Positions 13,438 to 16,461 of a DNA stretch of 29,175 nucleotides are shown piece by piece. The translations under genes and the position numbers were made by a program. The DNA comes from Candidatus Jordarchaeia archaeon (GTDB taxonomy: Archaea; Asgardarchaeota; Jordiarchaeia; Jordiarchaeales; Jordiarchaeaceae), in the NCBI GenBank assembly GCA_029856435.1, contig JAHQXB010000071.1, forward strand, positions 1 to 29,175, written 5' to 3'. The stretch's first letter is position 1, and each line of letters starts with the position of its first letter. The notes below the pieces were generated by a model. That model saw only the letters and a list, made by a program, of their open reading frames with translations. It had not been told where the DNA came from and did not search any database.

Positions 13438-14396
13438 ACAGACACCACTTACAAGCTATTTCTAATTCATTGCCAAATGTTTTGTAAATATATCGAAGTT
13501 GCTGCCAGCTTGGGATTTATTTGGAGGAGTCATTCCTATTTTCACATTACCTTGTGCATTACTTTTGAAAAAATATGGCGCCTCAGAAGATTATTTTATT
13601 CTCCCTAAATTTATATTTTGGGTTCAAGAAAGCAAGAGGCCAGAGGCCACTTTTTAATTAGTGAGGTTTCTTGAGGGAGCATAGGAAGACGCATCACTGG
13701 AGTGCAGAAGGCCAACCGCGCTGTTAGAAGCTACTTCGCAAAGTCTTTAAAATTGGGCAACTGATTTTAACGAGCTCAAGTGTTTTGGGAGTATTGGATG
13801 TATTTGAGTCCCTATTGAAAGAGTGGTTCTTGAGGTCTACTCTTCAAATACCAGGAACCGGCCTGATGACTACAAGTTCCATAAGAAAACTAAGAAGGAT
13901 ACGAGCAAGTGCTTTTTGTAAGTGACTGCTAAAACTTTTCCCTTGAGCAGTTCAAATTTTAGGGGTTTGCTGTGTGTGGGCGAAAGGCAAGGTGTAGAGC
14001 TTGCATATAGTAATGATTACTGTACCAAAAAGGATTACATACCGGGTTTTTTACTACATCTTCCCAAACAGAAGCCCGGGAAACTAAAAAAGCTCGCGAC
14101 TTCAGATCTTACGCCTGCTACAACTACACCTATCTACTACCAATAATAACTGAAACAGGACATACCTATAACACTCAAGAAAAGGCGCCTAAATCCAAAA
14201 ACTAAAAAAGACGCTTGAGGGAAAAACAAGTTGGCAATATCTTACTAATAATAGTACTTCGGAAACTTTTGAAAGTTTTATTTGGGGACGCCGTGGACTT
14301 TCCATTTATAATTTTTCCTTTTCGCTTCCAGAAAATATGGTTTCTTCCGCCTTTTTTGGGGGATCTTGTCGTAAGTATGTAGTTTGTTGACATGGT

Positions 14397-14500
14397 ATGT
14401 GTGCAGGGTTAGCCAGTCTTGCCCCTTTTTTGGGCTTATTTGGAAAGAAGCCCTGTAAAGCCTCCTTTTTTTGAGAGGAACAAACGATCATGCATAGAAG
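14397..14500 (-). repeat. MITE-like element, degenerate copy 3 (inverted orientation)
   Basis: The minus strand carries ATCGTTTG..., TTTACAGGGCTTCTTTC, AAGCCC...GGGG and CTAACCCTGCAC, collinear with copies 1 and 2. One end is eroded and no TSD is seen; boundaries approximate. Confidence 0.55.
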
Positions 14501-14540
14501 GGAAGCCACATACTTAAGACGAGAGCCCGTATTAATAATA

Positions 14541-14553
14541 AGAAAAGTTTAAG
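14541..14553 (+). promoter_or_regulatory. Putative BRE-TATA promoter of tRNA-Asn
   Basis: AGAAAAG followed by TTTAAG about 35-40 nt upstream of the tRNA 5' end. Confidence 0.45.
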
Positions 14554-14634
14554 AGGGATTAATACTAATTTGTGTTCGCGAAGGTTGCCGAGGTAGCTCA
14601 GTTGGTAGAGCGTCAGGCTGTTAACTTGATGGTC

Positions 14635-14661
14635 AGGAGCTCTGTTTTAGAATCCCCATAA
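14635..14661 (+). other. tRNA intron 1, 27 nt, position 48/49, strict BHB
   Basis: Central helix ATGG (14629-32)/CCAT (14656-59); bulges TCA and AAG; inner helix GGA/TCC; outer helix CTTG/CAGG. Confidence 0.88.
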
Positions 14662-14672
14662 GCAGGTTCGAG

Positions 14673-14702
14673 ATGATATTAACACGCTTCATATCACGAA
14701 TA
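14673..14702 (+). other. tRNA intron 2, 30 nt, position 59/60, strict BHB
   Basis: Central helix TTCG (14667-70)/CGAA (14697-700); bulges AGA and TAT; inner helix TGATAT/ATATCA; outer helix is the T stem. Confidence 0.9.
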
Positions 14703-15198
14703 TCCTGTCCTCGGCGCCTCCCCTCGATTTTTGTTTCTTAAAAAGCGAGATAAGCGTCGTCTTAGGCAAACACACTTTGTTTTAGAATGTATGAAAACAA
14801 GTTTATGGTAATTTTTTCGAATTATTTTGCAAATTTCGATTGGCTTTTTTGGGGGGAGTCTGTTTAAAGAAAAACTTGTTGAAATCAAATATGTTTATTT
14901 CTTGAGATTTGTAAAAGATTAATTTGGGTTAGTTTGCACTTGTATAGTGAAGGTAGTGAAGAAAAGCGGATTGTATTGTTTAAGAAAATTGATTAGTTGA
15001 AGAGAAGTATCTAGGTAATCTTAGTAGCTCTCTGTAACTTATAGGAAACACAGAAAAGGGATATTCTCTAATAATGTAAATCGGATAGATGTAAAAAATT
15101 GTACATTTTAGGGATTTCCGATTTTAGTGTTGCAAAACTTTTAATAATGGGAAAACTTGTTTGATATCCTTACAGTAATATTGTGAAATGGGTGATTC

Positions 15199-15489
15199 GT
15201 GATGAAGAAATCCAGGGGTTATCGTTCTGGCACTCGGAATGTATTAAAGAAACACACTAGGCAACGCGGACTTCCACCCTTAAGCCGAATTTTGAGAAGG
15301 TATGAGCCAGGGGAGAAGGTTAGTATTGTAATTGATCCAAGTATTCATAAGGGTCAGCCTCACATGAGATTTCATGGGAAGATTGGATCTATATTAGAAA
15401 AACGTGGAAGGGCCTATGTGGTTTCGGTTAATATGGGGAATAGGAGGAAGATAATTATTGCTCGACCGGAGCATTTGAGATCTACCTAG
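15199..15489 (+). CDS. rpl21e: 50S ribosomal protein L21e (eL21)
   Basis: SRGYRSGTRNVLKK, GEKVSIVIDPSIHKGQPHMRFHGKIG, RPEHL. Confidence 0.97.
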   Translation: MMKKSRGYRSGTRNVLKKHTRQRGLPPLSRILRRYEPGEKVSIVIDPSIHKGQPHMRFHGKIGSILEKRGRAYVVSVNMGNRRKIIIARPEHLRST

Positions 15490-15509
15490 GTAGATAGGAG
15501 GTAACCTTT

Positions 15510-15839
15510 TTGCCTGTTAAGATTCTAAAGGAGAGGCGGCTTACTTTAGCAGAGGTTAAAAAGATTTTAGAGGAACGTAGCATGAAAGGAGAATTAAGTT
15601 ATATCCAACGTGTAACATTAGATTATGCTACCAAATTTTCACAATTATCTGTTGAAAAGTCTATAGAGATCGTTAAAAGGTTAATTGAAAACTTTGGAAT
15701 AAGTGAAAGTACCGCCATCCAAATTGTTAATGCCGTCCCAAAGAGTATTGATGAGCTGCGTGTTTTTTTAACGAATGAACAAAAGATTTTTACTGAGGAG
15801 GAGTTGAACAGAATTTTAAAGAGTTTAGAGGAAACATAA
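15510..15839 (+). CDS. rpoF: DNA-directed RNA polymerase subunit F (Rpo4)
   Basis: LTLAEVKKIL, ELSYIQRVTLDYATKFS, AIQIVNAVPKSIDELR; conserved position after rpl21e. Confidence 0.93.
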   Translation: MPVKILKERRLTLAEVKKILEERSMKGELSYIQRVTLDYATKFSQLSVEKSIEIVKRLIENFGISESTAIQIVNAVPKSIDELRVFLTNEQKIFTEEELNRILKSLEET

Positions 15840-15879
15840 AATAGATTCTTTTTAGTTTACTTAAAGGCGGGATTAGAAG

Positions 15880-16461
15880 ATGATTCTGAGTTCTAAGAAG
15901 TACGAAGAATTTGCATATGTGTTAGACTTTTTACCACAAGGCTATGCGAATGACCCCCGACCGACTTTCCAGAGAGAACCACTAACGCAGGCTATTGGTG
16001 AAACCCATTTTACATTGCTAGAACTTGTCCCAAGAAAGGGAGTTTCATTCGCTCTTCAGGAGAGAATTTATATTGGTAAGGGCTCCCGTAAAAAAATTGA
16101 CCATGTTCAAAGGCGTATTCGCTATGAGGATCTTACTCCCACAGCTAAATCGGAACTTCCATTTGTTATTGAAAAAATTGTGCAGCTAAGAGAAAAAGAA
16201 TTTGTAGATTTCTTTAACAATGCGCGCCCAATCACCACCAGAATGCACCAGTTAAAACTAATCCCAGGCATTGGCAAAAAGACAATGTGGCTAATACTTG
16301 AAGAGAGGAAAAAAGAACCTTTTAAGAGCTTTGAGAATATTAGTAGCAGAGTGCGTATGCCAGAACCGAAAAAAGCCATAGTTAATCGAATTATGAGTGA
16401 ACTAAAGGGAGAAGACAAGTACTACCTTTTCACCCGCCCATATACAACTAGCCAAGAATGA
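15880..16461 (+). CDS. DUF655 family putative RNA-binding protein (HhH motif)
   Basis: EEFAYVLDFLPQG, QAIGETHFTLLEL, FFNNARPITTRMHQL.LIPGIGKK, PFKSF; conserved rpl21e-rpoF-DUF655-ksgA synteny. Confidence 0.92.
   Translation: MILSSKKYEEFAYVLDFLPQGYANDPRPTFQREPLTQAIGETHFTLLELVPRKGVSFALQERIYIGKGSRKKIDHVQRRIRYEDLTPTAKSELPFVIEKIVQLREKEFVDFFNNARPITTRMHQLKLIPGIGKKTMWLILEERKKEPFKSFENISSRVRMPEPKKAIVNRIMSELKGEDKYYLFTRPYTTSQE

Follow-up and report, generated by a model that had tools for sequence, protein, structure and literature searches.

How two introns are removed from one precursor when the motifs that define them lay claim to the same bases is the question raised by the tRNA-Asn gene at positions 14587-14716 (plus strand) of the 29,175-nt stretch of DNA analysed here, referred to as the window. 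The preliminary description of this gene reasoned, from the incompatibility of the two complete motifs, that splicing should proceed stepwise, with refolding of the precursor between the two cuts. We examined the gene and its motifs, the corresponding genes of related archaea, and the splicing enzymes encoded by the host genome (G000; 3.5 Mb, 97.8% complete).

Identity and layout of the tRNA-Asn gene

The gene is composed of three exons, all on the plus strand. Exon 1 (14587..14634) supplies tRNA positions 1-48, that is, the 5' strand of the acceptor stem, the D arm, the anticodon arm and a variable loop of 5 nt; exon 2 (14662..14672), only 11 nt in length, supplies positions 49-59 with the 5' strand of the T stem and most of the T loop; and exon 3 (14703..14716) contributes positions 60-73, comprising T60, the 3' strands of the T stem and the acceptor stem, and the discriminator G73. 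The exons are separated by intron 1 (14635..14661, plus strand; 27 nt), which interrupts the tRNA at 48/49 and has to be excised for the cloverleaf to form, and by intron 2 (14673..14702, plus strand; 30 nt) at 59/60. Both lie in strict hBHBh' motifs, and the canonical site 37/38 is free of an intron. As read from the sequence, the anticodon GTT occupies 14620-22 and the discriminator G is at 14716. All of the conserved tRNA nucleotides are there (U8, A14, G18-G19, U33, T54-T55-C56, A58 and G73); CCA is not encoded, and CCT stands directly 3' of exon 3.

A putative promoter, consisting of a purine-rich BRE-like stretch and then a TATA-like box, is found at 14544..14555 on the plus strand, ~32-43 nt 5' of the mature end, and an oligo-T run on the same strand (14728..14736) is likely to be an archaeal transcription terminator. 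The gene sits in a 1.7-kb intergenic region, with a BtpA-family gene on the minus strand as one neighbour and a conserved information-processing cluster (L21e, Rpb4/RpoF, DUF655, KsgA, a methyltransferase and a DRG-type GTPase) on the other side. A 287-nt insertion (window 14246-14540) is flanked by the 8-bp direct repeat TAATAATA (14246-53 and 14533-40) and ends 7 nt upstream of the BRE/TATA-like box of the tRNA gene. The corresponding site is empty in G001 and G003, two genomes of the same genus, as well as in hot-spring contigs. Two repeat families make up the insert, namely one of ~165-175 nt (~14360-14530), present in dozens of copies, and one of ~65 nt (~14296-14361), and a repeat search with the insert returned 104 HSPs in total in the host genome.

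With both introns taken out, the exons yield a perfect 73-nt tRNA-Asn(GTT) that is accepted by ARAGORN. The same program found no tRNA anywhere in the unspliced window and nothing in the form lacking intron 1 only, and it mis-modelled the form lacking intron 2 only as a tRNA-Asn of 84 bases, in which a 16-nt intron is wrongly placed at 37/38. The Rfam tRNA model produced a single match in the window, at 14587-14664, which is barely significant (30.2 bits) and wrongly modelled. Thus, the expectation that standard scanners would miss or mis-call this gene was correct for ARAGORN and Rfam, respectively, whereas tRNAscan-SE 2.0 has called an ortholog with the exact junctions.

The exon boundaries were checked further. 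An exhaustive search of the region for combinations of up to 4 introns in strict BHB motifs gave exactly one tRNA-Asn(GTT) solution, with the junctions listed above. A global alignment that makes no use of motifs, between the 130-nt gene and the intron-less tRNA-Asn of the Asgard genome G048 (locus L007), placed the insertions at 14635-14661 and 14673-14702 and showed identity at 62 of the 73 exon positions; the boundary of intron 1 in this alignment slides by 2-3 nt owing to a short repeat. Relatives with no intron or a canonical intron also have G49, and the end of their T loop agrees with the cuts defined by the BHB motifs. The positions and lengths originally assigned to the two introns, and the lack of one at 37/38, were confirmed by these analyses.

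In dinucleotide shuffles, one BHB motif as strong as those of this gene turned up in 12% of cases and two in 1.7%, so that motif strength alone is modest to weak evidence. The identity of the gene rests instead on the cloverleaf obtained after excision, on conservation in three genomes of the same genus, and on the published tRNAscan-SE call for the ortholog. When the host genome was searched by BLAST with the gene, it returned one match only, and the window gene is the sole detectable tRNA-Asn of this genome. It is therefore near certain that 14587-14716 encodes a functional tRNA-Asn(GUU), present as a single copy in an Asgard archaeon of the Freyarchaeia type.

The difficulty of detection extends to the whole host genome, for which ARAGORN reported 2 tRNAs only, both of which really contain introns of 19-20 nt that had been read as long variable arms, and the Rfam tRNA model gave 12 matches, 6 of them above the gathering score. 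Standard annotation would thus make this genome look almost tRNA-free. A solver combining BHB search with ARAGORN found solutions for ~1/3 of the host orthologs, and about half were validated when introns were transferred from G005, another member of the genus, by alignment; the census is accordingly a partial one. In these genomes, introns have been reported in 92-95% of tRNA genes (PMC11291895), and, for these families, a 2026 preprint describes ~2.2 intervening sequences for each tRNA gene, with enrichment at canonical BHB boundaries (bioRxiv 10.64898/2026.10.13.758758). The gene had been set against the multi-intron tRNAs of Thermoproteales; for an Asgard lineage with introns in nearly all of its tRNA genes, this framing is outdated.

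Two strict BHB motifs with shared bases

The motifs were evaluated by the hBHBh' test, which looks for a 4-bp central helix, two 3-nt bulges on opposite strands with the cut after the second bulge nucleotide, and h and h' helices of at least 2 bp. For both introns we found 4/4 central pairs, 3-nt bulges at the called junctions, outer and inner helices, and a canonical tRNA after excision, in agreement with the strict character first ascribed to them. BHB1 (14623..14668, plus strand) has an outer helix of 6 bp (AACTTG 14623-28 with CAGGTT 14663-68), a central helix formed by ATGG 14629-32 and CCAT 14656-59, bulges at 14633-35 and 14660-62, and a 3-bp inner helix (GGA 14636-38 with TCC 14653-55); its formation consumes the 3' strand of the anticodon stem, the 5' strand of the T stem and T54-T55. 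BHB2 (14662..14708, plus strand) is compatible with the cloverleaf fold, its outer helix being the 5-bp T stem itself (GCAGG 14662-66 with CCTGT 14704-08), followed by a central helix of TTCG 14667-70 with CGAA 14697-700, bulges at 14671-73 and 14701-03, and an inner helix of 6 bp (TGATAT 14674-79 with ATATCA 14691-96).

The two motifs had been described as sharing the bases CAGG, which pair with CTTG in the outer helix of BHB1. The overlap is real, but its extent was understated, as this helix comprises 6 bp rather than 4 and reaches into T54-T55. It clashes with the anticodon stem of the cloverleaf, with the outer helix of BHB2 and with part of the central helix of BHB2, and since it takes the T-stem 5' strand that BHB2 needs, strict BHB1 and strict BHB2 are mutually exclusive, just as had been claimed for the two complete motifs. 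Each of them can form in the unspliced sequence of the window. Hence, the relation between the two introns is one of mutual exclusion and differs from nested dependence. For either intron of the G005 ortholog, the motif class did not depend on whether the other intron had been removed.

The anticodon stem and the T stem have the common core CAGG on their 5' strands, and this allows a strand swap: the BHB1 fold joins positions 39-42 to 50-53 and, from the strands left over, 28-31 to 61-64. Six consecutive outer-helix pairs are expected by chance in ~0.3% of cases for one intron; the outer helix of BHB1 is stronger than this expectation, and it could be under selection.

The competing folds were compared with the nearest-neighbour models of ViennaRNA at 37-70°C, in which proteins, modifications and tertiary contacts are ignored. 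For the full precursor at 37°C, the best cloverleaf-type folds with strict BHB2 reached -38.1 to -38.6 kcal/mol, and the best fold with strict BHB1 reached -34.6 kcal/mol. A cloverleaf that holds strict BHB2 together with a relaxed form of BHB1 was predicted at -37.2 kcal/mol, a cost of ~1 kcal/mol; relaxed BHB1 retains a 3-bp central helix, a proper 3-nt 5' bulge and the inner hairpin, and it fits the intact cloverleaf. Once intron 2 was taken out and the remaining structure optimised, the BHB1 fold came to -34.8 versus -33.9 kcal/mol. Its penalty thus went from +3.5 to -0.9 kcal/mol upon loss of intron 2 at 37°C, and to -2.4 and -3.8 kcal/mol at 55°C and 70°C, respectively; when explicit structures were compared, it amounted to +5.3 kcal/mol with intron 2 in place and, after its removal, to +2.6 kcal/mol at 37°C and 0 at 60°C. 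For the G005 ortholog, the cloverleaf-type fold was better than the swapped fold by 7 kcal/mol. The predicted minimum-energy structure of the entire precursor was a rod that corresponds to neither model, and it was given no weight. If a kinetic order of splicing exists, these modelled energies favour removal of the 59/60 intron first.

Conservation of the gene and its introns among relatives

BLAST searches of relatives with the gene recovered full-length orthologs in the same genus only, with identities of 100% in G003, 99% in G001 and 90% in G005; a usable ortholog was found by BLAST neither in the sister family f2 nor in G002 and G004. The ortholog of G005, a genome listed in the same genus as G000, lies at C1:1651332-1651462, and these are the coordinates of a published Freyarchaeia Asn GTT entry (PMC11291895, Supplementary Data 4, tRNA 14), the tRNA-Asn(GTT) of the complete SRVP Freyarchaeia genome described by Valentin-Alvarado et al. 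(2024). For this entry, the authors reported introns at 1651380-1651407 and 1651419-1651448 (28 and 30 nt), with junctions called by tRNAscan-SE 2.0 and R2DT (PMC11291895). The exon lengths derived from the published coordinates (48, 11 and 14 nt) equal those of the window gene, and the 48/49 and 59/60 junctions are hence the same; the published Freyarchaeia entries all splice to valid tRNAs wherever ARAGORN can judge. The two-intron layout of tRNA-Asn is thus already annotated in a sister species, and the window gene is a further example of a published phenomenon.

All 73 exon bases are identical across the host genome, G001 and G003, and G005 deviates at position 55 only, so that the 48 bases of exon 1 are the same in all four genomes. 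The introns have diverged, with compensatory changes. Columns 14-39 of the four-genome alignment, which include the BRE/TATA-like block, are invariant, and the flanks diverge. In intron 1 of G005, which is 28 nt in length, the first inner-helix pair is A-U in place of G-C, the inner helix has 8 bp, and the fourth central pair is an A.C mismatch. Consequently, strict BHB1 is present in the window copy, G001 and G003 and missing from G005.

For BHB2, the pair between position 55 and the intron within the central helix is U-A in the window, G001, G003 and Atabeya-1, C-G in G005, and U.G in G009, a member of the sister family, and Atabeya-2. This series of covarying states, read from the aligned genes, supports selection on BHB2. 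The published Freyarchaeia tRNA-Asn (L006, G005:C1, 1500-1631) has a C at the universally conserved U55, and an A-to-G change in its intron 2 matches C55 and keeps the central helix of the BHB paired. Splicing constraints may have carried this change into the mature T loop of the G005 tRNA-Asn.

Atabeyarchaeia-1 and -2 also carry two introns in tRNA-Asn(GTT). The first lies where the variable loop meets the T stem, and the second is at 59/60 and has the same TTCG central helix. The first intron differs from that of the window gene in that it is located at 50/51, inside the T stem, and has an outer helix of 3 bp, and the intron sequences are unrelated to those of the window gene. In the tRNA-Asn(GTT) of G009 (L060, C4 ~59030-59341, minus strand), introns were read by eye in the D arm and at 37/38, 52/53 and 59/60 (13 nt), the combined BHB and ARAGORN solver having given no solution for this gene. 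Other Asgard tRNA-Asn genes carry no intron or the canonical intron only. Across the sequences of the genomes examined, the 59/60 intron is widespread and the 48/49 intron is confined to this genus. Of the 22 validated tRNA genes of G005, 9 have an intron at 59/60, more than at any other non-canonical site; 48/49 is used by Asn alone, and only Asn has BHB footprints that overlap by more than 3 nt.

Recent intron transposition was considered as well and left no sign, since neither Asn intron has sequence relatives elsewhere in the host genome or among the G005 introns. A case of another kind was noticed in tRNA-Asp(GTC), the introns of which at 45/46 and 53/54 resemble each other (L037, G005:C1:1426998-1427132; ortholog G000:C115:30636-30771); their likeness, seen at the sequence level, suggests an intragenic intron duplication. 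Each of these introns lies in an HBh' motif that is nearly devoid of an outer helix.

Splicing enzymes and the order of intron removal

The preliminary description had called for typing of the EndA of this genome, and two EndA-family genes were identified. The alpha subunit is a 192-aa ORF on C104 (L001:1178-1756) that matches the A. pernix alpha protein (3p1z_B) with an E value of 3e-45; the alignment spans the Crenarchaea-specific (L1) loop, and the loop lysine and the Tyr/His/Lys triad are kept. The beta-like paralog is a 197-aa ORF on C64 (L002:1195-1788) with a Ser where M. jannaschii EndA has its catalytic His. Judged by homology, from which its substrate range is predicted as well, the enzyme would be of the (alpha-beta)2 arrangement with an L1 loop and the lysine characteristic of the crenarchaeal loop. 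EndA of this type cleaves relaxed HBh' motifs, and Asgard archaea have been reported to possess the class (Kaneta et al. 2018, PMC5829648). RtcB is encoded in the host genome too. Its only rtcB gene contains an in-frame TGA within a 30-nt strict BHB insert (G000:C93:1547-1576, minus strand), and removal of this insert restores the conserved metal-binding motif LPDAHQGYG.

In the maturation pathway that we propose, transcription from the gene's own promoter would generate a precursor of ~130-150 nt, from which the (alpha-beta)2 endonuclease would remove the 48/49 and 59/60 introns before ligation by RtcB and addition of CCA. By virtue of the shared CAGG core, the precursor would have two alternative folds. 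In the cloverleaf-like fold, intron 2 would lie in its strict T-stem BHB and intron 1 would be presented as a relaxed HBh'-type motif only; in the swapped fold, intron 1 would lie in a strict BHB and intron 2 would lose its outer helix.

The reading that we moderately prefer, on the strength of the modelled folds and the predicted enzyme type, is that both introns are cut while the precursor is in the cloverleaf-like fold, by an endonuclease of broad specificity and without a fixed order or refolding being required. In the host genome, the outer helix of the tRNA-Asp and tRNA-Val introns at 45/46 and 46/47 measures 1 bp; in G005, it measures 0-1 bp, as seen in the variable-loop introns of four tRNAs of that genome. 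This argues that an outer helix is not needed in the variable-loop region. Strict BHB1 therefore appears not to be required, since the relaxed form fits the cloverleaf, G005 has the relaxed form only, the Asp and Val introns do with next to no outer helix, and the enzyme is of the type that accepts such motifs. On the same grounds, namely a broad EndA, introns free of an outer helix, the A.C mismatch of the sister species and a relaxed BHB1 compatible with the cloverleaf, the proposed need for stepwise splicing and refolding is not established. Probably, intron 1 owes its strict outer helix to the shared CAGG as a by-product, and this by-product may have helped the intron to become fixed at 48/49. 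In G009, which has an intron at 52/53 and none at 48/49, the two stems have CAGG in common as well; this identity thus predates the 48/49 intron or is independent of it.

The best of the competing explanations, which we rate as a tentative one, makes the order obligatory by way of the strand swap: the 59/60 intron would be cut first, the swapped fold would then display strict BHB1, and the cloverleaf would be regained after the second cut. Such a switch would draw on the mutual exclusion of the strict motifs and on the drop in the BHB1-fold penalty after removal of intron 2 given above for both the optimised and the explicit structures, and it would leave no strand unpaired, as the orphaned strands pair with each other over 4 bp in the swapped fold; order-dependent processing of BHB motifs is, moreover, known in archaea (PMC8450103) and in C. 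merolae (PMC3728597). However, the sister species G005 does without strict BHB1, the other variable-loop introns of the host genome have essentially no outer helix, and an (alpha-beta)2 enzyme tolerates relaxed motifs; in addition, G009 combines the CAGG identity with an intron at 52/53 instead of 48/49, and the energy gaps between the folds are small. The full form of the idea, in which the precursor has two states, each with one strict and one relaxed BHB, and removal of the 59/60 intron flips the equilibrium, exposes the 48/49 intron and imposes a refolding-driven order, seems unlikely to us. If true, it would mean a refolding-driven splicing order in an essential single-copy tRNA.

The reverse order, with the 48/49 intron removed first and co-transcriptionally, is improbable. 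It would exploit the fact that all elements of BHB1 (to 14668) are transcribed ~36 nt ahead of the T-stem 3' strand, so that BHB1 could form before its competitor exists, and strict BHB1 is indeed the predicted minimum-energy fold of a leaderless nascent RNA that ends exactly at 14668. For all other nascent lengths tested, or with a 10-nt leader, anticodon-stem folds were nevertheless better by 1-5 kcal/mol and the BHB1 pair probability was at most 0.08. Furthermore, the anticodon stem forms earlier and would need to be displaced, and there is no indication that archaeal EndA acts co-transcriptionally. A search for RNA data sets covering window 13600-15900 returned none. Two hot-springs metagenome runs labelled "metatranscriptomic" were inspected as a source of RNA evidence and discarded because they seem to consist of DNA; in their contigs, the gene of a close relative is present in unspliced form, and there are no splice joints at the introns.

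Decay or loss of function of this tRNA gene, with BHB-like motifs that are fortuitous, can be dismissed as highly improbable, for although the shuffles and the low Rfam score of the raw sequence would allow it, the cloverleaf after excision is perfect, the exons (position 55 of G005 excepted) and the promoter block are conserved within the genus while the introns diverge with compensatory changes, and no other tRNA-Asn is detectable in a genome that is nearly complete.

Among known systems, the window gene is closest to its Freyarchaeia ortholog, which is 90% identical over the gene and differs in the length, mismatch and inner helix of intron 1 and in C55 with its compensating intron change. 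The interrupted tRNAs of Freyarchaeia and Atabeyarchaeia described in the 2026 preprint match it in lineage, in the ~2.2 insertions per gene, in the BHB boundaries and in the preference for the T arm; in the sections covered, neither competition between motifs nor splicing order is taken up. Nested archaeal multi-intron pre-tRNAs (PMC8450103, PMC3728597) likewise have several non-canonical BHB introns per tRNA and an (alpha-beta)2 EndA, and their RNA structure implies an order. Unlike in these, the BHB motifs of the window gene are alternatives, neither of which needs prior removal of the other. Soma et al. (2013) mentioned nested archaeal introns and demonstrated ordered BHB processing experimentally in Cyanidioschyzon merolae (PMC3728597); there, the organism is a eukaryote, the motifs fold independently and the order is experimental, whereas an order for the window gene is a prediction. 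Interdependence of introns by mutual exclusion, as opposed to nesting, was not found in the literature searched, yet this nuance is no new mechanism, and existing knowledge of tRNA splicing is unchanged by the window gene.

The gene provides a clean, fully resolved case of the extreme tRNA gene interruption of Freyarchaeia and Atabeyarchaeia. With its mutually exclusive strict BHB motifs, it also offers a convenient natural substrate for asking whether the (alpha-beta)2 endonucleases of Asgard archaea need the full hBHBh' motif or accept relaxed ones.
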